Origin: Thermodesulfobacteriota bacterium
GTDB taxonomy: Bacteria; Desulfobacterota_D; UBA1144; Nemesobacterales; JAJCZQ01
Length of the DNA: 64,000 nucleotides
Direction of reading: 5' to 3'
Assembly: GCA_965215275.1 (NCBI GenBank)
Contig: OZ244044.1
Location: 179,679 to 243,678 of the forward strand
How positions within the stretch are numbered: the stretch's first letter is position 1; each line of letters begins with the position of its first letter. The position numbers were made by a program, and so were the translations under genes. The notes beneath the pieces were generated by a model. The model was not told the DNA's origin. It worked only from the letters and a program-made list of their open reading frames with translations, and made no database searches. This document shows, one piece after another, positions 998-61,917 of the stretch.

Positions 998-1171
998 GGG
1001 ATTACATACTTAATTGCCAAAAAGCTCAGACTACTTCCTGCACTGACTTTAAAGTTTTGGACAGGTCCTGTCAGTATGAGATATTATTTATCCACTTGAC
1101 ATTCGTTCATAATACTTGGTAAAATATAAATGTTATGAAAAATTCAAACATAAAAACACATAGTTCCATTA

Positions 1172-1182
1172 CCCCCCCCCCC
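1172..1182 (+). repeat. Homopolymeric C11 tract about 9 bp upstream of the -35 element of subtilase paralog 1
   Basis: Counted directly in the sequence. The position is homologous to the C10 tract upstream of paralog 2 (G10 at 26808-26817 on the plus strand). Confidence 0.85.
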
Positions 1183-1219: not shown

Positions 1220-1242
1220 TTAAGAACAATGTTTAAGATAAT

Positions 1243-1252
1243 CCCCCCCCCC
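1243..1252 (+). repeat. Homopolymeric C10 tract inside the 5' coding region, between ATG 1229 and the signal peptide; candidate translational phase-variation switch
   Basis: ATG(1229)-TTT-AAG-ATA-ATC-C10 runs into TAA at 1256. With C9 or C12 the ATG frame reads MFKIIPPPSKSLLTLVLFILFIMVIAAKG, which continues into the 1296 ORF. Confidence 0.8.
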
Positions 1253-1295
1253 ATCTAAGTCATTACTTACGTTAGTTTTATTTATTCTGTTTATA

Positions 1296-4200
1296 ATGGT
1301 AATAGCTGCAAAAGGGCAGAGCAGCCTGGAAGAAACATTATCTGAATGCAGAGGTATGAGTGCAGACACGGAAGATCCGTTATACGGATGTCAGTGGCAT
1401 CTGAAAAATACAGGACAGTTTAGTATTTCCGGAAATAGAATAACTGCAGGAGAAGATATAAACATAGAGGGAGTGTGGAACGAATACGTATACGGTACCG
1501 GAATTAACGTAGCAGTTGTAAGTGACGGTATCGACCTTTCACATGAGGACCTTTCTGCAAACGTACGTTCCGAACTGAACTATAGTTTTTCTGAGAAAGA
1601 TAATTCTGACAGTTCATCCTTTACCGGAACACGAGCAGCAGGTGTTATTGCAGCGGCTGGATATAACGGACTGGGAGTAAGAGGAACAGCACCTGGTGCG
1701 AGTATATACAGTTACAGGTTATCCGGTGATCTCAGGGAAGCGGACGCGGTGGTCCGTAATAAAGAAATAACAGCAGTATCGGTTAACGGCCTGGGATCTG
1801 AGGACGGAGCTTTTTTTCAGGAGGCTTTATCTTCCTGGGAAGAAGGAGTGGAACTTGGTATAAGTAAAGGGTTTTATGGTAAAGGAGTGTTTTACGTCCG
1901 GGGAGCAGGGGACGGGCATGAGAATAACGATCAGGCTAATTTTTCTGAATATTCTAATTACTACGGCGTAACAGCCGTGTGTTCAACTGACGGTTATGGA
2001 AAAAAGAGTATTTTTTCAGAAGAGGGAGTAAATCTCTGGGTATGTGCACCTGGTTCTGATATTGTAACCACAGATAACAACAACGATTACGTTGTAACTT
2101 CCGGAACATTTCTATCAGCTTCACAGGTCGGAGGAGTGGCTGCACTGCTGAGAGAGATAAACGGGAATCTGAGCTGGAGGGATATAAAGCTTATACTTGC
2201 GGGTTCAGCACGTCAGAACGATTTTTCTGATATTAGCTGGGAGACAGGAGCTGTTAAATACGGCTCTGACACGGAAAGATATAATTATAATCCTAAGTAT
2301 GGTTTTGGCGTGGTAGACGCAGAAGCAGCTGCAGAACTTGCAGGAAGCTGGAAAGGCGTTGGAGAGATGAGGACCGTTACCGCCTTTTCAGATAATGAAA
2401 TAACAATTCCTGATGGAGAAGGAGAAGCGGATGGAATACTTACCTCCACACTTATGATCCCGGACCTGGAGGAAATATTTACGGAATTCGTGGAGGTAGA
2501 ACTTGTTTTCTCTCATGACCGCTTACAGGACCTTAATATACAGATAACCTCTCCTTCCGGGACAGTATCTGAACTTGTGCGGGAGGTTGTAAGGGGATCT
2601 TCGAATGAAGAAGAAAACTGCGTCAGTTACCTGAGAAGAACACATCGTTTCGGGTCGGCTAAGCACCTCGGAGAAGACCCTTCCGGAGAATGGATCCTTA
2701 ATATATCTGATACTGCTTCCGGAGATGCAGAAAACACTGTTACCTTACACTCATGGAGCATTAAGGTATACGGGCATTTTTATCAGGGAACTGGCAATGA
2801 GATAAATCCTAAACATCACAGACTGAATTTTGGCGGTCAGACAATTCAGGATCAGGAGTATCAAGTAGAAGTTCAGATAGCACCATTAGTGCTGCCTAGG
2901 GCAACTGGAGATACTGGAATACAATATAATTTGACTGATGATCCAAACACAGATGGATTTGCCACTAATGTACCAATTGATGGATTGAGTTTTAACCGTG
3001 GAACCAGAACTCTAAGTGGCACACCCACTAATACTGGGTCTTTTGATCTCATATACAGCGCTGTTGGTAGAACAGACGGTACTGCTGCTCAACTTGAGTT
3101 CAACGTTACGGTGGTAAACGTCCCTACCTTCGGAGGTCAGACCATACCAGATCATACGTATGCAAGACTTCAGACAATAAGAAATCCGTTAACTTTTCCT
3201 AAAGCAACGGGAGGGAATGCTCCCTTGACTTACAGTATAACTCCTAAGGTACAGACTGGACTTGCTTTCAGCAGTTCCACTCGGAGGATAACCGGGTCAC
3301 CTGGGACTGTAAGGAGCAGAACTGAGCATACGTATACGGTAACGGACAATGAGGGAGATACGGCTGAGATAACGTTCGGTATAACCGTAGAAGGAAATGA
3401 CAGGAGGCCGCGTTTCAGAGCAGGTGAGAATATCTCTGATAAGTTTTATTTTACAGGTGTTCCGATAACGCCGGTAACGCTGCCCAGGGCAACTAACGGG
3501 AACAGTCCGATAAAATACAGTTTAAATCCTTCTTTACCAACTGGATTGAGCTTTAACGCAAATACCCGGGAGATAAGCGGGACACCGACTGCTGCAAGCA
3601 GTAACACAGAGTATACATACAGAGCATCAGACCTTGATGGAGACAGGCGTGATCTGAAGTTCAGTATCACGGTAAGGGATGCAACTGACGTACCGACCTT
3701 CGGCAGTGAGACGATAGATGATCAGGAGCATACAGCAGGGAGTCAGATAACACCAGTAACGCTGCCTGAGGCAACATCAGGAGATGCTCCGTTAATATAC
3801 CGTTTAACCCCTGCCTTGCCTGATGGATTGATCTATAACAATATCACCGGAGTTATAAGCGGAACACCGACTGCTGCAATGTCTGAGACTATGTATACAT
3901 ATACAGTAACGGATAATGATGGAGATACGGATGAGCTGACGTTTAATATTGAGGTAGCAGCAAGCTTCAGCAACGTAACGATAGAAGATAAGGTGTATAT
4001 AGCAGGTACAGCAGTAACGGAAATGCTGCCTGAGGCAACTGGACATAATGGAACGGTAACCTACAGTTTAACCCCATCATTACCAACTGGACTGGACTTT
4101 AACACAGCTACCCGGGAGATAAGTGGAACACCTTCTGCTGCATCGTCTCAGACTGCTTATACATATACCGTTACTACTGGTGCAGGAGGACCTGCACGAA

Positions 4201-4688
4201 CTTTGACGTTCAGGATAACAGTAGAAGAAGACAGCATGCCGGACTTCAGCGGTACAGCAATACCTGATCGGGTGTACACGGGGAGAGCAATAACGCTGCC
4301 GGAGGCAACGGGAGGGAATCCACCAGTTACTTACAGTATAACACCTGATCTGCCAGCTGGATTGAGATTTAACGAAGTAACGCGGGAAATAAGTGGGACA
4401 CCCAGGAGTGCATCAACAAGAACTTACACGTATACGGTAACGGACAGCAATGGAGATACGGATGATGCGACTTTCATGCTCAGTGTAGAGGTTACTTCTA
4501 CTCCAGGACCAACACCACCACGAGGACCAAGAACGTCAGGTACTGATTCAGGCGGAGGTGGAGGAGGATGTGCCGTCTCAGATCAGATCAGCGTTGTTTA
4601 TGATATTCTCGGAGCAGTGGCATGTCTGATACTTATACCTGTATCAGTAGTTATCAGAAGGAAGAGAAGAGCTCAGATAAAGACGTAG
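1296..4688 (+). CDS. Kexin-like (S8B) subtilase-family surface protein with P-domain, six He_PIG/cadherin-like repeats and a C-terminal Gly/Cys-TM-RRKRR sorting-type signal. The ORF as sequenced begins at 1296; the full-length form would start at ATG 1229 if the C-tract length changed.
   Basis: Asp motif VVSDGIDLSHEDL. The His region is TGTRAAG, where kexins have HGTRCAG. The Ser region is GTFLSAS, where GTS is expected. The P-domain ends in the GEW...HSWSIKVYG pattern. The repeats follow the pattern LPxATGGNxPLTYSxxPxLPxGLxFN..ISGTP..YTYTVTD.GDTD. The C-terminus is GGGGGGCAVS-hydrophobic helix-RRKRRAQIKT. Confidence 0.75.
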   Translation: MVIAAKGQSSLEETLSECRGMSADTEDPLYGCQWHLKNTGQFSISGNRITAGEDINIEGVWNEYVYGTGINVAVVSDGIDLSHEDLSANVRSELNYSFSEKDNSDSSSFTGTRAAGVIAAAGYNGLGVRGTAPGASIYSYRLSGDLREADAVVRNKEITAVSVNGLGSEDGAFFQEALSSWEEGVELGISKGFYGKGVFYVRGAGDGHENNDQANFSEYSNYYGVTAVCSTDGYGKKSIFSEEGVNLWVCAPGSDIVTTDNNNDYVVTSGTFLSASQVGGVAALLREINGNLSWRDIKLILAGSARQNDFSDISWETGAVKYGSDTERYNYNPKYGFGVVDAEAAAELAGSWKGVGEMRTVTAFSDNEITIPDGEGEADGILTSTLMIPDLEEIFTEFVEVELVFSHDRLQDLNIQITSPSGTVSELVREVVRGSSNEEENCVSYLRRTHRFGSAKHLGEDPSGEWILNISDTASGDAENTVTLHSWSIKVYGHFYQGTGNEINPKHHRLNFGGQTIQDQEYQVEVQIAPLVLPRATGDTGIQYNLTDDPNTDGFATNVPIDGLSFNRGTRTLSGTPTNTGSFDLIYSAVGRTDGTAAQLEFNVTVVNVPTFGGQTIPDHTYARLQTIRNPLTFPKATGGNAPLTYSITPKVQTGLAFSSSTRRITGSPGTVRSRTEHTYTVTDNEGDTAEITFGITVEGNDRRPRFRAGENISDKFYFTGVPITPVTLPRATNGNSPIKYSLNPSLPTGLSFNANTREISGTPTAASSNTEYTYRASDLDGDRRDLKFSITVRDATDVPTFGSETIDDQEHTAGSQITPVTLPEATSGDAPLIYRLTPALPDGLIYNNITGVISGTPTAAMSETMYTYTVTDNDGDTDELTFNIEVAASFSNVTIEDKVYIAGTAVTEMLPEATGHNGTVTYSLTPSLPTGLDFNTATREISGTPSAASSQTAYTYTVTTGAGGPARTLTFRITVEEDSMPDFSGTAIPDRVYTGRAITLPEATGGNPPVTYSITPDLPAGLRFNEVTREISGTPRSASTRTYTYTVTDSNGDTDDATFMLSVEVTSTPGPTPPRGPRTSGTDSGGGGGGCAVSDQISVVYDILGAVACLILIPVSVVIRRKRRAQIKT
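2808..4500 (+). repeat. Tandem array of six roughly 95-aa He_PIG/dystroglycan-cadherin-like repeats inside paralog 1
   Basis: The periodic motif PxATGGNAPLTYSITP...TREISGTPT...YTYTVTDNDGDTDE is visible in the translation. Confidence 0.7.
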
Positions 4689-6894: not shown

Positions 6895-7686
6895 GTGTAT
6901 ATTTCAGAAGACGATAATTTAAGTATATACAGATTTAAAGTAGAAAACAGTGGTAAGAACTTTAATTACATAGTTAAATGCAATCAAACGGGAGAATGCG
7001 TTGTGATAGACCCGCTTGACCCGGTTCGATTGCTGAACTTTGTAAGAAAGAACGATATGAGAGTGTCTTATGTAATAAATACCCACGGTCACCCCGATCA
7101 CGTTGAGGGAAATAATCCCATAATTAAGGTTTTTTTGTCATCTAATATCTTAATACACGAACTTGGTATGGATTTTGTTGCACCAAGAGCGGAAGCATTA
7201 AAAGAAGGGGACGTTATAAGTTGTGGTAAACTTAAAATAGATGTTCTGCACACCCCGGGTCACTGCCCCGAACATATTTCTTTAATGATCGGCAGCAATA
7301 TATTTGTAGGAGACACTATTTTTGTCTCCGGATGTGGAAACACAAAGTTCAGAGGTAATACTGATGAACTCTATGAAACTTTCTCAAGTAAGCTGATGAA
7401 ACTGGAAGATGATCTTAATGTGTTCTGCGGGCATGATTATGCAAAAAATAATTTAGAATTTGCTTTAAGTATTGATCATAATAATCCTCATATAAACAGT
7501 AAATTAGAAGAAATTAAAAAACAAAATGAGGTTTTATCTACGATCGGAGAAGAGAAAAAATATAATCCTTTCATGAGAGTTGGTGAAAAAAGTCTGGTCA
7601 GTGCCTTAAAAGAGAAATACCCTGATATGAAGACAGATGAGAGGTCCGTGTTCATTAAATTAAGAGAGCTTAGAGATAACTGGTAA
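6895..7686 (+). CDS. MBL-fold metallo-hydrolase, glyoxalase II-like
   Basis: HxHxDH motif INTHGHPDHVEGN. Size is consistent with a hydroxyacylglutathione hydrolase-like enzyme. Confidence 0.7.
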   Translation: MYISEDDNLSIYRFKVENSGKNFNYIVKCNQTGECVVIDPLDPVRLLNFVRKNDMRVSYVINTHGHPDHVEGNNPIIKVFLSSNILIHELGMDFVAPRAEALKEGDVISCGKLKIDVLHTPGHCPEHISLMIGSNIFVGDTIFVSGCGNTKFRGNTDELYETFSSKLMKLEDDLNVFCGHDYAKNNLEFALSIDHNNPHINSKLEEIKKQNEVLSTIGEEKKYNPFMRVGEKSLVSALKEKYPDMKTDERSVFIKLRELRDNW

Positions 7687-7720
7687 AGTGGTTCTTGTTC
7701 AGGGTAGGGCAGGGGGGGGG

Positions 7721-7741
7721 GCACGTCTCAAGTGGTTTTAA
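7721..7741. repeat. G-rich tract GGGTAGGGCAG11, including an 11-G homopolymer at 7731-7741, lying between convergent 3' ends
   Basis: Seen directly in the sequence. It has G-quadruplex-forming potential. Confidence 0.8.
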
Positions 7742-7749
7742 CTGATTTT

Positions 7750-8541
7750 TTAAAACAGACCTTTACTATAACCACCATCTATCTGAATGGTGTTCCCGGT
7801 TATGTAGCTGGCTCTTTCTGAAACCAGAAAAGCCACCATCGAACTGAATTCTTTTGGGTCGCCGATCCTCCCGACTGGAATATCGGATTCCATACCCTTA
7901 ATAACCGTTGTGAGATCCTTTTTTGTTTCTTCAGCTCTTTTTTCAGCGAGTTCCCTGATCCTATCGGTCATTATCCTTCCAGGACACAGGTTATTAACCA
8001 GTATATTAAACTTTCCATACTCATTGGACAGGGTCTTGGCAAAACCAATTACTCCGGTTCTAGCTGTATTTGAAAGGATAAGACCCTCTATGGGCTGCTT
8101 TACGGCAATTGAAGTAATATTGATTATCCTTCCCCATTTTTGCTTTTTCATGTATGGAAGAACCTCTTTTGTTAAATTAATAACGCTCAGGAGGTTCAGT
8201 TCCAGTGCACTCTGCCAGTCTTTTGATCTGAAGTCTTCAAAATAACCAAAAGGCGGGCCGCCCGCGTTGTTTATAACTATGTGAACCGTTTTATATTCTT
8301 TTATGGTGGACCTAACGACGTTTTTTATATCTTTGGTACTTTTTGCATCGGCTCTTAAAGATAGGACCCTGGTTTTGTATTTTTCTCTTATTTCGTCTGC
8401 TGTTTTTCTGATATCAGCTGAATTTCTTGAAAATATAGTTAAGTTACATCCTTCGGCAGCCAATTCTTCGGCACATGCTCTGCCCAGTCCTTTGCTGGAT
8501 GCTGATATTATTGCAACTTTGTCCTTTATACCTAAATTCAT
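7750..8541 (-). CDS. SDR-family oxidoreductase
   Basis: N-terminal dinucleotide-binding motif SASSKGLG and an NNAG motif. The canonical YxxxK appears to be replaced by S...R (SNTARTGVIGFAK); this comes from a memory-based alignment. Confidence 0.65.
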   Translation of the reverse strand: MNLGIKDKVAIISASSKGLGRACAEELAAEGCNLTIFSRNSADIRKTADEIREKYKTRVLSLRADAKSTKDIKNVVRSTIKEYKTVHIVINNAGGPPFGYFEDFRSKDWQSALELNLLSVINLTKEVLPYMKKQKWGRIINITSIAVKQPIEGLILSNTARTGVIGFAKTLSNEYGKFNILVNNLCPGRIMTDRIRELAEKRAEETKKDLTTVIKGMESDIPVGRIGDPKEFSSMVAFLVSERASYITGNTIQIDGGYSKGLF

Positions 8542-9539: not shown

Positions 9540-12398
9540 TTACTGAATTCCAAGCACTTCAGCGTCTCTGTCACAGAGCATTCCACCGTCGGTCCTTTTC
9601 TTTACGGTCTCATCACGTTTCCAGGACCTTTCACATCGTGCTTCCATCGTTAGATCATTGACTTCGACCTTCAGGTCGTTACCGTTCTTTATATTGAAAC
9701 GGCTTACTCCGCAGAGGTCGGCAAGTTCAGGTTCATAGGGTTTTATAGTATTATAGAGGTCGCTGTTTAAACTTATCTGAATACCAGCGTCCAGCGGATT
9801 GGAAATACCGTGCGATTTGGCCTCTTCAAGTCGTTTCATACATTGACTTCGTATGTTCAAGACCTCGTTCCAGGCGTTATCCAGCTTAATACTTTCAACG
9901 TCGGGGAATTCAGTAAGATGTACACTTTTTACATCATCAGCCCCGCACTGTTCATTAAGGCACCTGTATGCTTCATCAGCGGTATGTACTAATATTGGTG
10001 CCAGTAATCTTATTAAACCATCTGCTATATCGTACATAATGGTCTGGGAGCGTCTGCGGCGTCTGCTGTCCCGCCTGTCGCAGTATAACCTGTCTTTTAC
10101 AGCTGCCAGATAAACTGAACTTAAAGTTTCAGAGCAGAAACTGAATATTAACTCCCCTGCCCTTTTGTAATCAAATTCAGAATAAGCTTTTTTTGTTCTT
10201 GTGACGAATATAGAAAAATTTACATAGGCCCAGTGGTCAATGGACAGCTTATCTTCATCCGCTGTAAGGTCTGTTTTGTCTTTCTCGGGGTCAAAATCGC
10301 TTATATTGCCCAGCAGGAACCTGATCGTGTTTCTGATCTTCCTGTACTCGTCAGCTGCAACTTCAAAGTATCTCCAGTCCGTCTTTATGTCATTTGAGTA
10401 TTTTAAGTTACTGACCCACCATCTGCATACATCTGCTCCGTGTTTTTTTAATATTTCATCCACATCCAGTGCATTTCCGCCTGATTTGCTCATCTTTTTA
10501 CCGTGAACGTCGACCATAAAGCCGTGAGTGAGAATTCCCCTATATGGTGGTTCACCCGTCACTCCGAGTGCCAGGAGCAAAGACAGATGGAACCAGCCGC
10601 GATGTTGATCGGAACCTTCAAGGTAAAGGTCCGCCGGATATCCTATACTGCGTTTCTGGTGCTTTAAGACCGAGTTCCATGAAGAACCGGATTCGAACCA
10701 CACGTCAAATATATCCATTCCCTTACTGAGCTTGCCTTTGATCAGTTCCGGTTCGTTCTTTATCCAGTCCGGTGCATCAGGGTCATCTGCGGGGTCGTAA
10801 CCCTCAAGTATATGCTCGGCGTCTTCTATGAACCATACATCTGAACCTTTTTCTTTTATCTTGGAAGCAACAAGTTCCACGGTTCGTACCGTTAACAGAT
10901 GCTCTCCCCTGTCATTGGTGAAGTAAGGTATTGGAAGTCCCCAGGACCTCTGTCTTGATATACACCAGTCCGGTCGTGCTTCAAGCATGCCTCTCAGCCT
11001 GTTCCTTCCCCATTCGGGGAAGAACCTTACTTTGTTCACTACGCCGTCAATAGCTTTGTCCCGCAGTGTCTTACCGTCTTTACCATAAGGCTTGTCAACG
11101 GCTACGAACCACTGTTTGGCTGCTCTGAAGATCGTAGGGGTCTTGCTGCGCCAGTCATGGGGATAGCTGTGAAAGTACTCCTCTTCATGGAACAGGTGCC
11201 CGTTTTTCCTTAGCGCATCGATCACTAACTTATTTCCCTTCCATACGTTTACACCCTGCAGCCAGTCCGGAACGGTTTTATCAAAAGTACCGTCCTCCAG
11301 TACGGGGCAGTAAATGTCCAGTCCTTCCTTCAGTCCGGTCTGATAATCTTCGATCCCATGTCCTGGAGCAATGTGAACGATCCCTGTTCCATCTTCAAAA
11401 GTAACGTACTCTGCACCGACGACCACACCACGTCTTTGCATGAATGGATGAACATAGGTAATGCCGCTTTCGGCAAGTTCATCTCCTTTGAAACTCCCGA
11501 TCTTTTTGAAACTTCCCGTACCGGATCTGCCGAACACTTTTTCTGCAAGCAGTTCGGAAAGTATCGTGATTATTTTCTTACCCCAGTGCGTTATTTCATA
11601 TAGACCGTAATCTCCCACTGGTGAAACGGCTGCTGCCAGGTTTGCCGGAAGCGTCCATGGAGTGGTCGTCCAGATCATCAGATAGATATCTTTTCCTGAA
11701 ACTTCGACTGGTAAGGGCAAGTTATTAGTGTCGTCTATCTGAAAAAGGACAAAGATACTTTTATCCTTTCTGTCGTAGTACTCAAGTTCTGCGTCTGCAA
11801 GAGCTGTTTGATTTTCAATTGACCAGTGGATCGGCTTCAGGTCCCTGTAAACGAGCCTGTTATCTATAAGCCGTGCGAACACTTCCAGAACCCCTACTTC
11901 ATACCTGGGGACCATTGTCAGGTACGGGTTATCATAATTCCCGGTAGTTCCAAGCCGTTTCATCTGACCTGACTGGACCTTGACGAACTTACTGGCGTAA
12001 TTAAAGCATTTATTTCTGATCTTCAGCTTTGTATAGCCCCTTGCACTGTCCCCCAGGTCTTTAAGGACCTTATGTTCAATGGGAAGTCCATGACAGTCCC
12101 AGCCGGGAATAAAATCCACGTTATAGCCTTCCATGGTCTTGGACCTCACTACAAGGTCCTTGAGGACTTTATTTAAAAGATGTCCAAGGTGGATCGGTCC
12201 GTTCGCATAAGGAGGACCGTCGTGGAAAATAAATTTTTCCCTGTGTTCAGACCGCTCTCTTGTTTTTTCATAAAGCTTTTCCTCGGCCCAGGCCTTCTGG
12301 AGCGCGGGTTCACGCTGGGTTAAGTTAGCTTTCATTGGAAAGCTGGTCCTGGGAAGGTTCAGGGTGTTTTTATAATTTATCTTTTTTACAGTAGACAT
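9540..12398 (-). CDS. ileS: Isoleucine--tRNA ligase
   Basis: Class I HIGH motif (PYANGPIHLGH) and KMSKS motif; length 952 aa. Confidence 0.9.
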   Translation of the reverse strand: MSTVKKINYKNTLNLPRTSFPMKANLTQREPALQKAWAEEKLYEKTRERSEHREKFIFHDGPPYANGPIHLGHLLNKVLKDLVVRSKTMEGYNVDFIPGWDCHGLPIEHKVLKDLGDSARGYTKLKIRNKCFNYASKFVKVQSGQMKRLGTTGNYDNPYLTMVPRYEVGVLEVFARLIDNRLVYRDLKPIHWSIENQTALADAELEYYDRKDKSIFVLFQIDDTNNLPLPVEVSGKDIYLMIWTTTPWTLPANLAAAVSPVGDYGLYEITHWGKKIITILSELLAEKVFGRSGTGSFKKIGSFKGDELAESGITYVHPFMQRRGVVVGAEYVTFEDGTGIVHIAPGHGIEDYQTGLKEGLDIYCPVLEDGTFDKTVPDWLQGVNVWKGNKLVIDALRKNGHLFHEEEYFHSYPHDWRSKTPTIFRAAKQWFVAVDKPYGKDGKTLRDKAIDGVVNKVRFFPEWGRNRLRGMLEARPDWCISRQRSWGLPIPYFTNDRGEHLLTVRTVELVASKIKEKGSDVWFIEDAEHILEGYDPADDPDAPDWIKNEPELIKGKLSKGMDIFDVWFESGSSWNSVLKHQKRSIGYPADLYLEGSDQHRGWFHLSLLLALGVTGEPPYRGILTHGFMVDVHGKKMSKSGGNALDVDEILKKHGADVCRWWVSNLKYSNDIKTDWRYFEVAADEYRKIRNTIRFLLGNISDFDPEKDKTDLTADEDKLSIDHWAYVNFSIFVTRTKKAYSEFDYKRAGELIFSFCSETLSSVYLAAVKDRLYCDRRDSRRRRRSQTIMYDIADGLIRLLAPILVHTADEAYRCLNEQCGADDVKSVHLTEFPDVESIKLDNAWNEVLNIRSQCMKRLEEAKSHGISNPLDAGIQISLNSDLYNTIKPYEPELADLCGVSRFNIKNGNDLKVEVNDLTMEARCERSWKRDETVKKRTDGGMLCDRDAEVLGIQ

Positions 12399-12457
12399 TT
12401 TATGGCCGTGAACGGATCAGGCGATCATAAATCATTTTGCGGAACTGTAAACCTTCC

Positions 12458-12799
12458 TCAATTTTTTTCATTGTCAAAGAAAGTTTCAAGTCCTTCGTAC
12501 AGTTCTCTGGAGAACGTCACCCATTCCTCCCATTCTTTCATATAGTTCTTTTCACTGTCAACCCGCTTTTTCAGCTTAAAGCCGATCTCGGTATATTCTA
12601 TGGCAAAATTCCCGTTCTTATTCAGTTTCTTCAACAGAATATCTCCATATTTTTTAAGCATACTGATAGTTTCACTGTCCGAATCCCTGATCTCAGCCAC
12701 AAAATAGCCGTTTACCTGTGTTGCAGGCATATCCATCTGGAGATTGCGGAATTTCGTCCTGTTCATATCGTCCGCTTTCATAGAGATCAGTATTTCCAT
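12458..12799 (-). CDS. Hypothetical protein (113 aa) encoded immediately downstream of the PDH operon lpdA
   Basis: ORF with no recognisable motifs, placed in an operonic position. Confidence 0.4.
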   Translation of the reverse strand: MEILISMKADDMNRTKFRNLQMDMPATQVNGYFVAEIRDSDSETISMLKKYGDILLKKLNKNGNFAIEYTEIGFKLKKRVDSEKNYMKEWEEWVTFSRELYEGLETFFDNEKN

Positions 12800-18383: not shown

Positions 18384-19700
18384 AAGGGAATTATAGTGAA
18401 TAGTTGACAGGAAGAAAAATTGAAAACGGGTCAGAAAATGGGTAATATTATAGCATGGTTAGAACGATCACAAGAACTGTAAAGGCAGATAGTGTTTTTC
18501 ATAAAAGGCTGGATGAATTCTTACAACAGCTTACCGACCTGTATAACGGAGCTTTATATCACAGATTAAGATCTTATGACTGGTATGAAAAAACTATCTC
18601 TAAATACGAACAGTTTAACGAACTAACTGAGGTCCGAGAGCAAGACAAGGAATTTGAAAAGTTTAATGTTGTAGCTCAAAGAAGCGTTCTGGAAAGACTG
18701 GATAATGCATATAGTCCTTATTTGAACTATTTAAAGAATAAAAAAGCAGGAAAGAAGGTGGGCAGACCAAAATACAAAGGTCCAAACAGACCTGTCAGAA
18801 GTTTTGAAACAAACAATTATAAAAACATTGAAAAGATCGGCAGAAGAACGTATTTAACGATAAAGGGACTTGGCAGATTATCTTTCAAAGGTTCTATGCC
18901 TGATGGAGTTGTTTTAAAACAACCTAAAACAACAATAAGGATAGTTAAAACTGCTATAAGGATAAAGATCCAGTTTCTATGTGAGTTTACCAGCGAAAAG
19001 AAAAGACCTATGGACAGGTCCATAGGGATCGATCTTGGAATTATAAACAGAATGGCTTTTTCAGATGGAACTAAAATACCAGGAGTTCGGTTGAACAGAA
19101 AGGAACTGAAAAGAAAGCAGAGAATTGTTTCAAGAGCGGTAAAAGGTTCTGACAGCAGAAAGAAGAAAGTTTTATCGTTAGCAAAGGAATGGGAACGAAC
19201 TACCGATCGTGAAAATAACGCTATACACAGAATGACTACCGAAATAGTAAAAAAGAACAATCATATAAAGTTGGAGGATTTAAAGATCCAAAATATGGTA
19301 AAAAATCCTTATTTAGCAAGAAGTGTAACGGAACAGCAATGGGGGAAGATTAAAACCCAACTTGACTACAAAGCCGAGATAGCTGGAGGCAAGTTAGTTT
19401 TAGTTAATTCCCATTATACAACAATGACCTGTTCTGAATGCGGAAAGGTAAATCCAAAACTGCCTTTGTCTGAAAGAGTATTTAACTGTATATATTGCGG
19501 TTATTCAGAAGACAGGGATATAAATGCAGGTAAAAATATCAATACTCTTAATGAAGGAGACTTCATATCGGGTGGGAATAAGGTAGAAATACTCCCGATG
19601 AGTGCTAAGAGTATCAGATCAAAAGAGAACAGGGATAGAGGAACTCTGCACTCAGAACAGTACGAGTAGTTGTTTGTCAACTATTCACTATAATTCCCTT
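18384..19700 (+). mobile_element. TnpB-only insertion element (IS200/IS605-family OrfB type) bounded by perfect 26-bp terminal inverted repeats
   Basis: 18384-18409 reads AAGGGAATTATAGTGAATAGTTGACA, and 19675-19700 is its exact reverse complement. Confidence 0.75.
18455..19669 (+). CDS. tnpB: TnpB (OrfB) RuvC-like RNA-guided nuclease-family transposase accessory protein
   Basis: RuvC-I motif IGIDLGI. C-terminal zinc finger CSECG...CIYCG. RuvC-III motif RDINAGKNI. Confidence 0.8.
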   Translation: MVRTITRTVKADSVFHKRLDEFLQQLTDLYNGALYHRLRSYDWYEKTISKYEQFNELTEVREQDKEFEKFNVVAQRSVLERLDNAYSPYLNYLKNKKAGKKVGRPKYKGPNRPVRSFETNNYKNIEKIGRRTYLTIKGLGRLSFKGSMPDGVVLKQPKTTIRIVKTAIRIKIQFLCEFTSEKKRPMDRSIGIDLGIINRMAFSDGTKIPGVRLNRKELKRKQRIVSRAVKGSDSRKKKVLSLAKEWERTTDRENNAIHRMTTEIVKKNNHIKLEDLKIQNMVKNPYLARSVTEQQWGKIKTQLDYKAEIAGGKLVLVNSHYTTMTCSECGKVNPKLPLSERVFNCIYCGYSEDRDINAGKNINTLNEGDFISGGNKVEILPMSAKSIRSKENRDRGTLHSEQYE

Positions 19701-22731: not shown

Positions 22732-24035
22732 TTGTCAATGGGAACTATATACTTAAGTATCCAGTGGATACTAAAAGTTCTCTTTGACGAGTCATAGACC
22801 AGTTCCTGTCCCCAACCCCTCTGCAGTCTCCCCGTCCAATCACCCCTTTCCCTGAGGCTATAATTTGTTTTATTCCAGTTTCCAACTGGTTAAATGCAGC
22901 ATTTAAGTCAGCATTAACTTCATAACCGCAAGATGTACACTTAAATCTGGATTGCGATCTTCTGTTATCAGGAGATCTGTGTCCGCATTCAGAACAGGTT
23001 TGACTGGTATATGCAGCTGGAACTTCTTCAGTAGCATTACACTTGTAATCCAGCATCCTTTTCATATCAAACCAGCCAGTAGCACGAATGTTCCTGTTCA
23101 TCTTGCGAAAGTTCTTCCATTTCTTTCTGGCTGTCATCCCTTGTGTATTAAGTCTCTCAAGTACAGGAACATCATAAAGATCGGAGATCTTTCTTGTAAC
23201 CTGATGTCTCCAGTCCTTCTGTCTGTTTGCCAGCTTCCTATGAAGTTTCTGTAACCTTTCCTTAGTAATTCTCCACCTGTTACTTCTCTCTTCCTGACGT
23301 GCAAGTTTCTTTTGGTATCTGCGTATCTTTGCTTCTGTAAGTTCATCATCAGATAACTTAAAAACCTGTCCGTCAGACAGCGTAACCTGTCTTGAATTCC
23401 TGTCCATTGCTACAACTCTTACTTCTTTCTTTTCCTTTTTAGTTTCATCTATCTCATAGGTAAGGTACGCATACCACTTACCGCATTCCTTCCTTATCCT
23501 GCCAGAAAGGAACTTTCCATCAGGATATGGATTCTTACCTGCCAACCTGAACCATCCAACCTTTAAAATACGGAGCCACTTATTATCTGACAGTTTAGCT
23601 GACTGATAATTTACCGGGAATGAAGGAGTGGTTTTTAATTTACTCTTGAATTTAGGTTGTCCCGATTTTCCATCCCTGTATCTCTTACAGGCATTTGTAA
23701 GGTCCAGTAAATAATGCTGAAGTATGTAAGCAGATGCTTCTTTCAGAAAGTAGTTCTTTTCTTCTTTCTTCAATTCTCTCAAATCGTTACCTAAACTCTC
23801 ATGACCATAACCATCATTAAAATCATTATCCTTTAAATTTCCCACGAATTGATTCCAGATAAACCTGCAACAGCCAGCAGTAGAGGAAAGTTTATGAAAC
23901 TTCTCCCTGTTGTTTGATCTCAACCTCTGCCTTACCGTTCTTATTGTCTTACCTTCTTTCATATTTGTAATTTTACCTTATTCCCTTGCTTTTTTTAAGT
24001 AGTTTGGATAGTTAAGTATATAGTCCCCTTGTCAA
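22732..24035 (-). mobile_element. Second, distinct TnpB-only insertion element with imperfect terminal inverted repeats of about 30 bp
   Basis: 22732-22762 reads TTGTCAATGGGAACTATATACTTAAGTATCC. The reverse complement of 24006-24035 is TTGACAAGGGGACTATATACTTAACTATCC. Confidence 0.65.
22745..23962 (-). CDS. tnpB: TnpB (OrfB)-family protein
   Basis: C-terminal zinc finger CSECG...CTSCG and RuvC-III-like VNADLNAAFN; 405 aa. Confidence 0.8.
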   Translation of the reverse strand: MKEGKTIRTVRQRLRSNNREKFHKLSSTAGCCRFIWNQFVGNLKDNDFNDGYGHESLGNDLRELKKEEKNYFLKEASAYILQHYLLDLTNACKRYRDGKSGQPKFKSKLKTTPSFPVNYQSAKLSDNKWLRILKVGWFRLAGKNPYPDGKFLSGRIRKECGKWYAYLTYEIDETKKEKKEVRVVAMDRNSRQVTLSDGQVFKLSDDELTEAKIRRYQKKLARQEERSNRWRITKERLQKLHRKLANRQKDWRHQVTRKISDLYDVPVLERLNTQGMTARKKWKNFRKMNRNIRATGWFDMKRMLDYKCNATEEVPAAYTSQTCSECGHRSPDNRRSQSRFKCTSCGYEVNADLNAAFNQLETGIKQIIASGKGVIGRGDCRGVGDRNWSMTRQRELLVSTGYLSI

Positions 24036-24240: not shown

Positions 24241-26694
24241 TCAGGTCTTTATCCGAGACCTAATCTTCCTTCTTATCACAACAGATACAGGTATAAGCAT
24301 CAGCGATGCCACTGCTGTGAGCATATCAGGAACGGCTTCGCTCTGACCGGAGACCGCACATCCTCCTCCGCCTGTATCACTACCTGATGACGTTGGTCTT
24401 TGTGTCGGTGGTCTTGTTGTTGGTGGGTCTGTCGGTCCTGGCGGCGTAGTTGTTACCCTGATCGTAAATCTCAGCTCATCCGTATCTCCATCTTCGTCCG
24501 TTACCTTATATGTATAACTGCCAGAAGATACAGCAGTCGGTGTTCCGCTGATAACTCTGTCAGTTTCACTGAAAGCAAGTCCAGCAGGTAAACCAGTAGC
24601 AGGTAAAAGAGGGGACAGGCTGTAGGTCAGTTCTCCATTCCCTGCTGTTGCCTCAGGCAGTGTTTCTTTTATTGCAGTTCCCGGCACGTAATTCTTATCT
24701 GGTATGGTCCAGTTGTTAAACGTCGGCGTGTCCCCAGACATATGACCATAGACCTTTATGTTCCATGAGTGTAAGGTCCCCGTACCTGCAATTGAATTGT
24801 TAGTTATCTTCAAGGTCCACTCTCCAGCAGGGTCCGTTCCTAAGTGATTGGCTAAACCAAAACGATGTTCCCTGCCTGTGTACTTAAAGTCGTCTACAGT
24901 AAGAGATCCGTCAGATAAATGTGATAACGCTTCTGATGCATATTCCTCAGTGAGTTTTGACACGGTAGTATCGTCAGGAGAAGTTATTTCTATATCTAAA
25001 AAAGGAAAGAAAGGATGGGTAAAATTGATACCTATCTCTATAAATTCCGTAAATACCTCAGTGTCTGGTATATCTATATCAGGTACTGTCAGTGTGAAAA
25101 CAACTGAAACGTCTTCTGCGTTTTCCCCCGTTGTGAAGTCTGGTATAACCGTATTGATATTACCCGAGGAAACCGTCACGGGTTTCATTTGCGGTGGAAC
25201 GTTGGTCCAGCTTTCTGCAAGTTCCACTGCAGCTGCAGCGTCTACTGTGCCAAAAGTATCTACTGTGCCAAAACCGAACTTTGGATTGTAAAAATAATAC
25301 TCTGAATCAGAACCGTATTGAAGTGCTACTCTCTTCCATTCTTGGGTATCACCGGAACGGGAGCCCTGGCTGGCTGAACCTGCCAAGATCAGTTTCAGGT
25401 CTCGCCAGCTAAGATCACTGTTTACCTCTCTCATCAGTGCTGCAATTCCTGAAACGACCGCTGCTGAATTTGACGTTCCAGGGAACTCAAAAGTATAACC
25501 GTCGTTATTGTCGGTAGTTACAATACCGGAACCCGGTGCACATACCCATAGATTGTATCCCTCTTCTGAAAAGGAACTCTTAGTAACAGCGAGCGCATCC
25601 CTATCGATCTCTGATGAACATACGGTAGTTACTGCGTAGTAGTTGGAATACTCATCAAAATTAGCCTGGTCTGATCCTTCATGTCCGTCCCCTGCCGCCC
25701 ATACGTAAAACACCCCTTTACCACCAAATCCTTCTCTTATACCCGTTCTCACCCCTTCTTCCCACTCTGATGAAGCCTCTGTAAGAACGGGAAGGTCCTT
25801 CGGTCCCCAGTTGTTGACCGATACAGCAGTTATATCCTTATTACGGACCATGGCGTCCTTTGCATTAGCATCACTGAAGTTACCAGCTAAATTATAACTG
25901 TAGATGTTTGCCTCAGGTGCTACACCTCTTACTCCAAGGCTGTTATCACCCACTGCTGCTATAATGCCAGCTACACGTGTTCCACGACCACTGAAAGGAC
26001 TGTACAGATCACCATTCCCAGAGTAATCATGAGAAAGTGTGGTATCTACATTGTCAGCAAGGTCCTCATGGTCTGTGTCCATACCATGATCTACCACCGC
26101 TACGTTAATCCCAGCACCAAATACGGCATCATCCCAGACATCTTCTATGTTTATGTCTATATCTTGTCTGGCGGAGGTTTGGAATACCTTATCGCCACCT
26201 AATATTACATCAACCGCTGGAGATTCCAGATACCACTGACAGCCGTATAAGGGATCATTTGGAAAATTGGTAGTAATAATTGAACAGGTTTCAAAGAGTT
26301 GATTAGAATCAGCTAATTGAACTTGAACTCGATAGGATGTAGCACCACTGCTTCCTACAACGATATAGTACGTTCCCCGTCTGAGGTGAGTTTGTATAGA
26401 TATATTTCCTAGTAGCCTTTCATCACTTGGGTCCACTACTTCAGTAGTACTTGCTATCAGATCATCATTACTGTCACATACCTGTAGGCTGTATTCCTGA
26501 TCATTGGAGAAGGGGAAGGTTACCAATATATCTGCAATAAAATCTCCATTTATGTTTATCTGAAAGTAATGCGGATCAGCACCGGCAGCTAAACTTCCAT
26601 TGTGTGTTGGTCCTTGCACTCTCAACGTAGCTTCGGTCGTTGCACTGGAGTCACAGTTGTTAATGCTGGTCTTACCATATGCACTAATGGACAC
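24241..26694 (-). CDS. Kexin-like (S8B) subtilase-family surface protein, paralog 2. It has an N-terminal beta-sandwich-type pre-domain, a P-domain, one He_PIG repeat and the same C-terminal sorting-type signal. The full-length form would start at ATG 26758 if the C-tract length changed.
   Basis: Asp motif VVDHGMDTDHEDL. The His region is RGTRVAG, with no His. The Ser region is GTSNSAA. The P-domain ends in GEWTLKITNN...HSWNIKVYG. The C-terminus is GGGGCAVS-hydrophobic helix-RRKIRSRIKT. Confidence 0.75.
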   Translation of the reverse strand: MSISAYGKTSINNCDSSATTEATLRVQGPTHNGSLAAGADPHYFQININGDFIADILVTFPFSNDQEYSLQVCDSNDDLIASTTEVVDPSDERLLGNISIQTHLRRGTYYIVVGSSGATSYRVQVQLADSNQLFETCSIITTNFPNDPLYGCQWYLESPAVDVILGGDKVFQTSARQDIDINIEDVWDDAVFGAGINVAVVDHGMDTDHEDLADNVDTTLSHDYSGNGDLYSPFSGRGTRVAGIIAAVGDNSLGVRGVAPEANIYSYNLAGNFSDANAKDAMVRNKDITAVSVNNWGPKDLPVLTEASSEWEEGVRTGIREGFGGKGVFYVWAAGDGHEGSDQANFDEYSNYYAVTTVCSSEIDRDALAVTKSSFSEEGYNLWVCAPGSGIVTTDNNDGYTFEFPGTSNSAAVVSGIAALMREVNSDLSWRDLKLILAGSASQGSRSGDTQEWKRVALQYGSDSEYYFYNPKFGFGTVDTFGTVDAAAAVELAESWTNVPPQMKPVTVSSGNINTVIPDFTTGENAEDVSVVFTLTVPDIDIPDTEVFTEFIEIGINFTHPFFPFLDIEITSPDDTTVSKLTEEYASEALSHLSDGSLTVDDFKYTGREHRFGLANHLGTDPAGEWTLKITNNSIAGTGTLHSWNIKVYGHMSGDTPTFNNWTIPDKNYVPGTAIKETLPEATAGNGELTYSLSPLLPATGLPAGLAFSETDRVISGTPTAVSSGSYTYKVTDEDGDTDELRFTIRVTTTPPGPTDPPTTRPPTQRPTSSGSDTGGGGCAVSGQSEAVPDMLTAVASLMLIPVSVVIRRKIRSRIKT

Positions 26695-26732
26695 AAAGCA
26701 CAGAAGAAAGAAAAAAGGAATTAATAACTTAT

Positions 26733-26744
26733 GGGGGGGGGGGG
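26733..26744 (-). repeat. Homopolymeric C12 tract on the coding strand (G12 on the plus strand), lying between the upstream ATG and the signal peptide of paralog 2
   Basis: ATG-TTG-AAG-TTT-CTC-C12 runs into TAA. With C11 or C14 the frame reads MLKFLPPPHKLLIPFFFLLCFVSISAYG, which continues into the protease frame. Confidence 0.8.
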
Positions 26745-26767
26745 AGAAACTTCAACATTATTATATT

Positions 26768-26807: not shown

Positions 26808-26817
26808 GGGGGGGGGG
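26808..26817 (-). repeat. Homopolymeric C10 tract on the coding strand (G10 on the plus strand), 11 bp upstream of the -35 element of paralog 2
   Basis: Position is homologous to the C11 tract at 1172-1182. Confidence 0.85.
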
Positions 26818-32499: not shown

Positions 32500-32890
32500 C
32501 CATTCAGTATATCTTAAGAAGTTCCTTTCTGATCACTGCTCCGAGCAGATCAGGAAAGACATAGTTATGATCGGAGGTTGCACGTCCACCACCGCCAGGA
32601 CCAGCATCTTATGTTAATATCTAAAGCTGGTCCTGGTGTTGGATTCACTGCCCCTACCCTGATCATGAAGTTCAGTTCATCCGTATTTCCATCTTCGTCT
32701 TCTGCCGTAGAGGTGTAAGTACTGAAAGAGTGCTCCACTTCCTCCCGCTGCCTCAGGTAGAATTGCTGTAATTGAACTCTCTACTACGCACTGCCGATTG
32801 GAGATGGCTACTCCCCCACTCCCTTAAATGAAATTCTGTTATCCAGGTTAGAAGTATAAGTGTTTTCTACGACGGGATAGAGAGAGGTAA
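32500..32890 (-). pseudogene. Decayed 3' remnant of a third kexin-like surface-protein paralog, containing a P-domain end, a He_PIG fragment and a sorting-signal fragment
   Basis: The reverse-complement translation gives TAILPEAAGGSGAL, then ...YTSTAEDEDGNTDELNFMIRV, then ...GPGGGGRATSDHNYVFPDLLGAVIRKELLKIY*. These are homologous to LPEATAGNGELTYSL...YTYKVTDEDGDTDELRFTIRV...GGGGCAVSDQISVVYDILGAVACL...RRKRR. Nucleotide similarity to 24440-24520 is visible. There are frameshifts, internal deletions and no TM segment. Confidence 0.7.
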
Positions 32891-55800: not shown

Positions 55801-57040
55801 GTTCTTTAATGACCTCATCCAGTGCGTCCCAGACTTTCGGGTCTTCCTGCTCAACGAGTTTCTTTGCTATTTTAATGGTTAACGCGTAGCCCCATTCCTC
55901 GAGTTTCTGATAGATAAATGGCTTGAACAGTTCAAGTGCCATCTGCTTCGGCAATCCGCACTGATGGAGTTTCAGTTCCGGACCGACCGTGATCACGGAC
56001 CTTCCAGAGTAATCCACCCTCTTACCTAATAGGTTCTGTCTGAACCTTCCCTGTTTTCCTTTTATTATATCGCTAAGGCTTTTTAAAGGTCTGCGGTTGT
56101 GTCCAAGTACGGGTCTGCCTCGTCTGCCGTTCTCAAGGAGTGCATCCACTGATTCCTGAAGCATTCTCTTTTCATTTCTTACGATAATGTCAGGTGCTCC
56201 TAGTTCCGTCAGTTTTTTCAGTCTGTTGTTCCTGTTTATGACCCTTCTGTACAGGTCGTTCAGGTCGGAGGTTGCAAACCTGCCTCCGTCCAGTGGTACC
56301 AGTGGTCTGAGGTCCGGCGGCAGAACGGGGATCATTGTTAAGATCATCCACTCCGGCTTGTTCTTTGACTTTCTGAACGCGTCACATACCCTCAGCCTTT
56401 TTGCTATCCTTGCTCTTTTGATCAGATCTTTCGTTCTCTTGATCTCGTCTTTCAGATCCTCGGACAGGGCGAGCATATCCCTGTTCTTAAGCATTTCCCT
56501 GATGGTTTCAGCACCCATGCCGACTTTGAAAGTCTGACCGAATTCGTCAAGCAGCTGTCTGTATTCTTCTTCGTTTATGACCTCGCCGTACTTTAATTTC
56601 GTAGGACCGGGGTCGTAAACGACGTAAGCCTCAAAATACAAGGTCTTCTCAAGGTCTTTCAGGGTCATGCCCAGAAGCATGCGGATGATCTTCAAAAACC
56701 ATATATGAACGGTCGGTGATACGAGTTTAATATGGGCCATTCTTTCGCGTCTGACCTTTGAGGATATGACTTCAACCCCGCATTTTTCACACGTTATACC
56801 TCTGTGCTTTAACCTCTTGTACTTTCCGCAGGTGCATTCGTAGTCTTTGACCGGCCCGAATATCTTGGCACAGAACAAACCGTTCCTCTCTGGTTTGAAA
56901 GTTCTGTAATTGATGGTTTCCGGTTTGGCTATCTCACCCCAAGACCACTCTTTTATCTTTTCTGGTGAAGCAATGGATATCTTTACCGTCGAATAATCGG
57001 ATGGGTTCTTCGGTTTTTCAAAAAGGGTATCTATTTCCAC
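52877..57040 (-). CDS. rpoC: DNA-directed RNA polymerase subunit beta'
   Basis: Zinc-binding Cys motifs and the NADFDGD active site. Confidence 0.95.
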
Positions 57041-61527: not shown

Positions 61528-61917
61528 CTATGATATCTCTACGGTTGCACCGGCTGATTCCAGTTTATTCTTAATTTCCTCAGCTTCTTCTTTGTTTATA
61601 TCATCTTTAACGTTTTTTGGGGCACTTTCTACGAGTTCTTTGGCTTCTTTGAGCCCTAACGAGGTAACCTCTCTCACGGCTTTGATGACCTGGATCTTAT
61701 TTTCTCCAAAGTCCTTTAAAATAACGCTTACTTCGGTTTTTTCTTCGCCACCTGGACTTTCCTGATCCGCAGCGGCACCTGGCACAGCTGCAACTGCCAT
61801 CTGCGGTGCTGCCTGAATATCGAATTTTTCCTCTATCTCCTTGATCAGCTCTGATACCTCGAGCATGGTGGCTTTTTCCAGGTACGTAATTACATCGGAT
61901 TTACTTATATCAGCCAT
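61528..61917 (-). CDS. rplL: 50S ribosomal protein L7/L12
   Basis: Ala/Pro-rich hinge and a C-terminal domain ending ...[10 protein letters not shown]. Confidence 0.95.

Follow-up and report, generated by a model that had tools for sequence, protein, structure and literature searches.

The 64,000-nucleotide window analyzed here (Thermodesulfobacteriota bacterium, GenBank assembly GCA_965215275.1, contig OZ244044.1, positions 179,679 to 243,678 of the forward strand) encodes two modular secreted proteins, P1 and P2, that end in the same short C-terminal tail: a glycine run closed by a cysteine, a membrane helix, and a basic cluster. This tail, and the enzyme that may process it, are our subject. 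P1 and P2 are paralogues, with 48% identity over the 621 columns of their main BLASTP alignment (E = 2e-148). Their tails are 68% identical, and the segments GGGGCAVS, LIPVSVVIRRK, and IKT are the same in both. An earlier account made from the DNA letters alone (the sequence-only reading) had quoted both C-termini, and both are present in the open reading frame (ORF) translations. The 62 residues quoted for P1 correspond to 4500..4685, followed by a stop codon at 4686..4688; the start coordinate given for them, 4489, lies 11 nt too early and out of frame, as the peptide begins at 4500. No strand had been given for P2, which is encoded on the minus strand. The features of the two genes are as follows.

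1296..4688, plus strand: P1, an ORF of 1130 amino acids (aa) for a predicted secreted surface protein with a furin/kexin-like S8 domain, a P domain, about six He_PIG Ig-like repeats, a Pro/Thr linker, and the tail (Pfam S8, P_proprotein, He_PIG x6)
4500..4550, plus strand: P1 Pro/Thr/Gly-rich linker TPGPTPPRGPRTSGTDS; its length and sequence vary among paralogues
4551..4580, plus strand: P1 signature GGGGGG-C-A-V-S, in which the Gly run stops abruptly at the invariant Cys and a CaaX-like aliphatic box follows
4569..4571, plus strand: codon of the invariant P1 Cys, residue 1092, the predicted site of Cys modification and cleavage
4581..4604, plus strand: P1 spacer DQISVVYD, with an invariant Gln, a variable middle, and a nearly invariant last Asp
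4605..4655, plus strand: P1 transmembrane helix ILGAVACLILIPVSVVI, 17 residues, with conserved L.LIPVS
4656..4688, plus strand: P1 basic cytoplasmic tail RRKRRAQIKT (4656..4685) and stop codon
24241..26694, minus strand: P2, an ORF of 817 aa, the P1 paralogue, with an N-terminal PPC-like domain, S8, a P domain, one He_PIG repeat, a linker, and the tail (Pfam)
about 25350-26250, minus strand: P2 S8 domain, without the catalytic His
24349..24372, minus strand: P2 signature GGGG-C-A-V-S
24325..24348, minus strand: P2 spacer GQSEAVPD
24274..24324, minus strand: P2 helix MLTAVASLMLIPVSVVI
24244..24273, minus strand: P2 basic tail RRKIRSRIKT

Alignment of 20 tails from this family revealed a strict pattern. 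The last two Gly, the Cys, Ser at +3, Gln at +5, and L.LI.V within the helix are invariant, and the helix Pro, the RRK, and the Asp preceding the helix are nearly so. All 20 members retain the tripartite layout (P1 4551..4685, P2 24244..24372), which bears out the comparison drawn in the sequence-only reading with the sorting domains of exosortase, rhombosortase, and myxosortase systems. The Cys is present in 20/20 tails of this lineage and in 17/17 related metagenomic tails described below.

The distribution of the tail was examined with an exhaustive hidden Markov model (HMM) search, in which a profile of four tails was compared with 1.84 billion representative proteins. Fifteen further protein clusters were recovered (E 1e-19 to 1e-31), all of the same modular family; the motif is therefore not limited to the two proteins in the window, a limitation that would have told against the sequence-only reading. 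In 13 of the 15 clusters the aligned tail runs to the final residue or to the one before it; P0010 and P0011 extend beyond it by 9 and 4 residues. The tail is restricted to the C-termini of secreted proteins. At least eight carriers are encoded on a single 1,990,023-bp contig of an apparently sponge-associated Dadabacteria-like lineage, and others in the metagenome-assembled genome (MAG) GCA_964348445.1. A word-indexed protein search with the tail returned two fragments only, both from JGI sponge-type metagenomes. Scans of genome and metagenome DNA with the tail alignment gave pattern matches, none of which was confirmed by tblastn; so short a query of low complexity is probably hard to confirm, as L001 and L002, themselves from JGI metagenomes, were missed as well. 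All carriers in the lineage combine the same modules (PPC-like repeats, S8, P domain, He_PIG) in various ways: P0009 consists of PPC-like repeats only, and in P0011 the P domain runs directly into the tail. This conservation is far beyond chance.

One explanation for these observations is a plain anchor, in which an uncut stop-transfer helix and a positive-inside cluster would keep the ectodomain tethered to the outer side of the cytoplasmic membrane, and conservation would reflect recent ancestry and gene conversion. Substitution rates lend this some weight. Synonymous divergence (dS) is lower in the tail than in the protease core in all three comparisons: about a third of it for P1 versus P2 and P1 versus the family member at locus L082 (~0.4 against ~1.2), and 0.57 against 0.79 for P2 versus L082. 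The ratio of nonsynonymous to synonymous divergence (dN/dS) for the whole tail, 0.3-0.5, is not below that of the core, 0.24-0.34. By segment, each of only 6-22 codons, constraint is apparent in the signature (~0.15) and in the helix (0.2-0.4), and the variable part of the spacer, only 6 codons with dN/dS above 1, looks free. At locus L083, two adjacent family members (L083:9854-10786 and 10985-12715) carry identical 45-residue tails, AGGGGGCAVSDQSNVVPDLLGAVACLMLIPVSVVIRRKIMSQINM, below differing upstream parts, which is direct evidence of gene conversion or of a recent duplication of the 3' end. The tail also occurs on one protein family only within the lineage, and its processing is predicted by analogy with other systems. 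Set against this, a plain anchor needs no invariant Gly-run-Cys, Ser, Gln, or intramembrane Pro, and these are kept in 20 copies while the spacer varies freely.

We compared the tails with known sorting signals. No NCBIfam C-terminal sorting model reached its cut-off on any of 18 lineage tails. Matches below threshold were to Synerg-CTERM (14 tails), JDVT-CTERM (7), Heimdall-CTERM (2), GVDTG-CTERM (1; nothing relevant to this signal was found in the literature), and TraA, a MYXO-CTERM protein (1). Synerg-CTERM (TIGR04564, cut-off 22.5 bits) scored 13.7 bits on the P1 tail and 6.6 on the P2 tail, with a best E among the 18 of 0.0079, and JDVT-CTERM (NF033191, cut-off 27 bits) gave a best E of 0.06. 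The MYXO-CTERM model TIGR03901 (cut-off 20 bits) matched no lineage tail, the only trace of this signal being the TraA match at 10.5 bits. The GlyGly-CTERM model, which we take to be TIGR03501, gave no match at E <= 10 among the 18 tails. The tail thus belongs to none of the named signals, as the sequence-only reading had supposed, and no existing model with a known partner accounts for it. That reading had also placed it closest to the Cys-containing MYXO-CTERM class, and the sub-threshold matches agree, being mostly to signals of the Cys class.

These comparisons bear on two other enzyme families. Processing by an exosortase or another sortase through a PEP-CTERM-like or LPXTG-like tag, or by a completely unknown enzyme, would fit the general tripartite layout, which is common to all such systems. 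However, no PEP, LPXTG, PGF, or similar motif is present, the PEP-CTERM, LPXTG, and PGF-CTERM models were without a match on the lineage tails, and no exosortase or sortase gene was found in any locus examined; we consider this origin very improbable. A rhombosortase-type tag, GlyGly-CTERM-like, cut by a rhomboid, and attached to a glycerophosphoethanolamine lipid like that of Vibrio cholerae VesB, shares several features with the tail: a Gly-rich motif, then a helix and basic residues, on a secreted, surface-retained, protease-like protein of a diderm. A helix-breaking Pro within the membrane span is, moreover, typical of rhomboid substrates. The protease-like cargo recalls VesB in particular (PMC6219818). 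Even so, GlyGly-CTERM signals have no invariant Cys, which is the hallmark of the CPBP-processed class, and their motif is absent here, with the model silent even at E <= 10. Their enzymes are rhomboids, whereas a CPBP gene, not a rhomboid gene, adjoins the P2 orthologue and the related metagenomic tails, and no rhomboid gene was found in the ~180 kb of lineage DNA examined (~9% of a genome). We therefore regard a rhombosortase as an improbable partner.

For Cys-containing signals, a different enzyme has been proposed. Haft assigned four invariant-Cys signals, among them Synerg-, JDVT-, and MYXO-CTERM, to CPBP/Rce1-like myxosortases, a group predicted to process all tripartite signals that contain a Cys (bioRxiv 10.1101/2023.06.07.544157). 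The one member of the class with experimental proof is MrtX, which cleaves MYXO-CTERM (TraA, Myxococcus) in a Cys-dependent manner, with surface sorting shown (PMC11980579).

The window itself encodes no sortase, exosortase, rhomboid, or CPBP protein, as judged from ORF translations read by eye and Pfam searches of five ORFs, P1 and P2 among them; the other three, which could not be identified by eye, gave one ion channel and two without a Pfam match, and tblastn of the CPBP protein described next against the window gave no match. The sequence-only reading had noted this absence and suggested that a rhomboid, exosortase, or CPBP-type enzyme is encoded elsewhere in the genome. In the sister genome GCA_964348445.1, a 211-aa Rce1-like gene (PF02517; L085:9043-9675) is found 323 bp upstream of P0004, the P2 orthologue, in the same orientation. 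P0004 shares 87% DNA identity with P2 of the window from the poly-C tract to the stop codon. The EExxxR, FxxxH, and HxxxN motifs of this CPBP protein are intact, and it passes the Pfam Rce1-like model with 64 bits against a cut-off of 22.4. Its top NCBIfam matches (bits/cut-off) were to myxosortase models, all of them short of the cut-off: MrtP (67/250), Mrt_core (64/100), MrtC (58/195), MrtS (57/130), and MrtX (44/180); MrtJ gave 35/75, and other CPBP subfamilies 13-37 bits. We estimate the probability of chance adjacency between the CPBP gene and P0004 at roughly 1%, given ~10 paralogues and an assumed ~1,900 genes. L087, a Dadabacteria-type contig from a more distant relative, encodes a CPBP orthologue with 57% identity, and 3.7 kb upstream of it an unrelated secreted 547-aa protein that ends DDDDDDDSGGCNLAAGSVATGTAAANFLLPLLPLAGAYALRRIRRRNIK (...DSGGC...FLLPLLPLAGAYALRRIRRRNIK). 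The sole NCBIfam trace of this protein is a weak similarity to a MYXO-CTERM-anchored family.

A gene for a phosphatidylinositol-phosphate-synthase-like CDP-alcohol phosphatidyltransferase is found near the CPBP gene in two loci (L085:12578-13270 and L086:10546-11319), directly downstream of it in L086 and downstream of the inserted P0004 in L085 (NCBIfam 148 bits, cut-off 180). That this conserved pair might mean an inositol-based anchor lipid strikes us as highly doubtful.

Metagenomes provide an independent link between tail and protease. A scan with an alignment of CPBP orthologues yielded 79 loci. In 17 of these by pattern, and in one more that the pattern missed (L140), a gene for a protein with a polyG-C-[SA]-[IVLM]-[SG] tail lies immediately beside the CPBP gene, upstream on the same strand in 16 cases and convergent in two, with intergenic gaps of -15 to 242 bp in the nine pairs measured. 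All polyG-Cys tails found in the scanned CPBP loci adjoined the CPBP gene, and the same pattern had no match among the 5,966 ORFs of control loci totalling 1.58 Mb. These tails consist of a polyG-Cys box, a short polar spacer, a Pro-containing helix, and a basic cluster, as in GGGGGGGGCSIIAGQKDRTVDIAILLIPIVAIFMALLRKKER of L097, and they form two sub-types, ...LLIPL... and ...F.VPY.... The GC content of the paired loci spans 34-63%, and the cargo is unrelated from locus to locus: S8 subtilase with fn3 (four loci), HYDIN/VesB-like Ig (two), InlB B-repeat, He_PIG/Big_9/cadherin-like proteins, and proteins of unknown family. The same CPBP clade is thus repeatedly paired with such tails on unrelated cargo. 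All metagenomic tails and their paired CPBP proteins score below NCBIfam cut-offs, and among the nine of these tails compared with PEP/LPXTG/PGF-type models there were only weak sub-threshold matches. The HMM of the lineage tails weakly detects the CPBP-adjacent ORFs; its best match in control loci had E = 4.6.

Together, the adjacency in the sister genome and the pairing in metagenomes support CPBP among the three enzyme types that the sequence-only reading had listed. They also bear on the plain anchor, which does not predict that the signature should recur on unrelated cargo beside a CPBP gene in 17-18 independent loci. In addition, sister contigs carry LapA-domain and ExbB/ExbD genes, suggestive of a diderm envelope, and in a diderm a plain anchor would strand adhesin-like, apparently phase-variable proteins of 800-1400 aa in the periplasm. 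We consider the plain anchor unlikely; the occurrence of the tail on one family, the signs of gene conversion, and a distribution of CPBP wider than that of the tail keep for it a small but real share of the probability.

Comparison with the named Cys-containing systems places the tail near several of them. Synerg-CTERM, the signal of MrtS (NF040589), is the most frequent sub-threshold match, and our CPBP protein reaches 57 of the 130 bits required by MrtS. In both signals a Ser/Gly-rich or Gly cluster ends abruptly at a single invariant Cys, and a Leu/Ile-rich membrane helix with a conserved Pro (invariant in Synerg-CTERM) precedes a basic tail. Synerg-CTERM lacks a spacer between Cys and helix, however, whereas the tail has one of ~11 residues (AVSDQxxxxxD; P1 AVSDQISVVYD), and it is confined to Synergistales, whereas this lineage is Dadabacteria-like. 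MYXO-CTERM (MrtX/MrtC/MrtP) shares the tripartite layout, the invariant Cys after Gly, and a genomic organization in which many clients are served by one housekeeping CPBP that is usually unlinked to them, and the CPBP protein scores best on MrtP and Mrt_core. MYXO-CTERM helices often carry an additional Cys (GCGC) and contain neither Pro nor any charged residue, in contrast to the nearly invariant Pro found here; the signal is restricted to Myxococcota, and the 64 bits of our enzyme fall short of the Mrt_core cut-off of 100. JDVT-CTERM/MrtJ (NF033192) likewise has a single signature Cys and conserved residues within the helix, and its dedicated, adjacent cargo-CPBP gene pair is just the arrangement of the 17-18 metagenomic pairs. 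It differs in a nearly invariant Asp-Pro nine residues after the Cys (here Asp at +11 and Pro at +23) and in having ~1 client per genome, compared with at least eight on one genome here.

The box that follows the Gly run also recalls more distant members of the protease superfamily. Eukaryotic CaaX/Rce1 and archaeal MmRce1 belong to the same superfamily (PF02517), and C-A-V-S (in the wider class, C-[SA]-[IVLM]-[SG]) has the Cys-aliphatic-aliphatic-X form; the MmRce1 test substrate ended ...SGCLVS. A CaaX box, however, stands at the extreme end of a cytosolic, prenylated protein, whereas the box in the tail is predicted to lie outside the cytoplasmic membrane, ~37 residues before the C-terminus, with a membrane helix after it.

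We consider it probable that the tail is an unnamed variant of the Cys-containing sorting signals processed by myxosortases. By analogy with those systems, processing could proceed as follows. When the poly-C tract in the gene leader (see below) is at a permissive length, the protein would be exported through its N-terminal Sec signal peptide, and the 17-residue C-terminal helix would hold it in the inner membrane with RRKRR in the cytoplasm. The Cys that ends the Gly run would be modified, probably by lipidation. A CPBP/Rce1-type glutamic intramembrane protease related to the myxosortases may then recognize the helix (L.LIPVS) and the CaaX-like C-A-V-S, cutting just after the Cys and removing the helix and basic tail. 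The mature lipidated protein would be moved to the cell surface, probably through a type II secretion system (T2SS), and anchored there.

Several observations weigh against this assignment. Within the lineage the tail is confined to one modular family, with no unrelated cargo; diverse cargo appears only in the wider class formed by the related metagenomic tails and the divergent L087 tail. Common descent from this single carrier family therefore explains part of the conservation, and gene conversion another part, since the low tail dS relative to the core points to gene conversion of the 3' ends. The bridge to the metagenomic tails includes a profile-profile alignment (hhalign; 97.3% probability, E = 1.7e-11, 44 columns), and low-complexity and hydrophobic sequence may raise its score artificially. 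Both tail and CPBP protein fall below every curated NCBIfam cut-off. The genomic link is also local: the context of P2 in the window (rdgB, TnpB) differs from that of its orthologue, and the window has no CPBP gene. Locus L086, whose CPBP protein is 68% identical, preserves the ancestral order of S41 protease, Gly-zipper lipoprotein, CPBP, and PIP-synthase-like gene, indicating that the tail gene was inserted beside CPBP in one genome. Since the CPBP orthologue is conserved in Dadabacteria-like genomes (159 matches, most at 40-57% identity), a distribution much wider than that of the tail, it is not an exclusive partner. Finally, the cut and its position, lipidation of the Cys, dependence on a T2SS, and exposure at the surface are all drawn by analogy from MrtX/TraA (PMC11980579) and from Haft (2023).

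The cargo of the tail is unusual in its own right. The catalytic His is absent in all seven tail-bearing proteins aligned to furin, and most are without further active-site residues. At the furin D/H/N/S positions P1 has S/T/D/F, with Asp, oxyanion Asn, and Ser missing along with the His (S8 domain 1296-2780), and P2 has D/R/D/S. Judged by these residues, the tail-bearing proteins are pseudoproteases. A scan of genome contigs found the S8 and P-domain core, with its PLYGCQW motif, at ~45% identity in 155 MAG loci, mostly from Dehalococcoidia and also from Binatia, Acidimicrobiia, Holophagales, and others. These homologues often occur in several copies per genome and encode proteins of 1000-4000 aa. 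Several of the MAGs bear names or isolate codes of sponge-symbiont type (Spongiisociaceae, Poriferisodalis, RHO and SB bins), and on this basis we take the setting to be sponge-associated; the distribution is suggestive of a family characteristic of sponge symbionts that has spread horizontally. Among the homologues from other sponge-symbiont phyla, 69/74 keep the DHNS residues. None of the 74 ORFs recovered from the 155 loci carries the tail, which is thus not a property of the protease family, and many end instead in a dockerin/EF-hand-like YDxNxDGxIDxxE...DYF repeat (YDxNxDGxIDxxEvxxAixDYF).

The genes for P1 and P2 also share an arrangement at their 5' ends, made up of the following features.

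1096..1182, plus strand: P1 distal leader, with a promoter-like TTGACA-18-TAAAAT (11/12, extended -10) and a second poly-C tract, C11, at 1172..1182
1229..1295, plus strand: P1 out-of-frame start region, ATG-TTT-AAG-ATA-AT(C)10 with the tract at 1243..1252, then signal-peptide coding sequence SKSLLTLVLFILFIMVIAAKGQS
26695..26758, minus strand: P2 out-of-frame start region, ATG-TTG-AAG-TTT-CT(C)12 with the tract at 26733..26744, then HKLLIPFFFLLCFVSISAYG
26808..26817, minus strand: second P2 poly-C tract, C10, further upstream and behind a near-consensus promoter

Each paralogue has a poly-C tract (C9-C12) just after the ATG and before the signal-peptide coding sequence. P1 translation probably begins at the ATG at 1229, which the tract puts out of frame: at C10 it is one C too long, and C9 or C12 would restore the frame. 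P2 probably starts at the ATG at 26758, likewise out of frame by one C, and C11 in place of the C12 present would restore it. P0013 and P0004 (sister MAG, C9) are one C too short, with tracts at L082:7250-7258 and L085:9954-9962, and P0014 is in frame, reading MYEKHDEFYPPPHQRR (PPP, then a signal peptide). This pattern fits slipped-strand ON/OFF phase variation of a surface-protein family; homopolymer assembly errors could also produce such frame breaks. Beyond the P1 and P2 leaders, the only long G/C homopolymer in the window is a G10 tract at 7712-7721 (C10 on the minus strand), which lies between the convergent genes 6895-7686 (plus) and 7750-8541 (minus) and has no associated ORF.

A third family member is present in the window as a decayed remnant.

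32507..32850, minus strand: He_PIG fragment, then ...GPGGGGRATSDHNYVFPDLLGAVIRKELL, with the helix deleted

The tail HMM matches this remnant with E = 4.9e-5. It adjoins a Band_7 gene, and metagenome contig L002 has an intact tail at the syntenic place. Loci L001 and L081 contain family members with in-frame stop codons or frameshifts; together with the remnant, these indicate that the family is undergoing decay.

Two TnpB-like ORFs (IS200/IS605-type OrfB) are found in the window, at 18455-19669 on the plus strand and at 22745-23962 on the minus strand, the second directly downstream of P2. Since the P2 orthologue sits elsewhere in the sister genome, beside CPBP, rearrangement may be associated with these elements. 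The window RpoB is 96% and 82% identical to two MAG proteins and shares 67-69% identity with proteins annotated as Thermodesulfobacteriota or Candidatus Dadabacteria, which places the organism near Dadabacteria/Thermodesulfobacteriota. Residues 145-217 of RpoB (ORF 57031-61491) are an inserted copy of the L7/L12 C-terminal domain (60841-61059, minus strand). The insert resembles rplL immediately upstream (61528-61917, minus strand), and both end AGATVEIS. The corresponding Pfam domain (PF00542) is also found in RpoB of the two closest relatives (96% and 82%) and not in other Dadabacteria-like RpoB proteins.

Proteolytic processing of Cys-containing tags by Rce1-like enzymes was recognized only recently, and MrtX/TraA alone supplies experimental proof. 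The tail described here adds a variant that current NCBIfam models miss, and its gene neighborhood ties that variant to a specific protease clade. Because the pairing of tail and protease recurs in many uncultured bacteria on unrelated cargo, the class of Cys tags probably far exceeds the families named so far. The compact two-gene cassettes should be convenient for testing whether the enzyme recognizes the CaaX-like box, the intramembrane Pro, or both.

As a tentative and broader proposal, the polyG-Cys-[SA]-[IVLM]-[SG] tail and a CPBP protein of ~175-255 aa may constitute a widespread unnamed sorting system of bacteria with 34-63% GC, usually a two-gene cassette, in which an internal CaaX-like box is read by a myxosortase relative. 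In the Dadabacteria-like sponge lineage, this system may have been taken over by one housekeeping CPBP, through which an enlarged and apparently phase-variable family of dead furin-like Ig-repeat proteins is displayed as variable host-interaction molecules. For sponge symbiosis, the finding suggests how a symbiont with a small genome may display variable dead-protease Ig-repeat proteins on its surface, molecules of the kind expected in host recognition or evasion.

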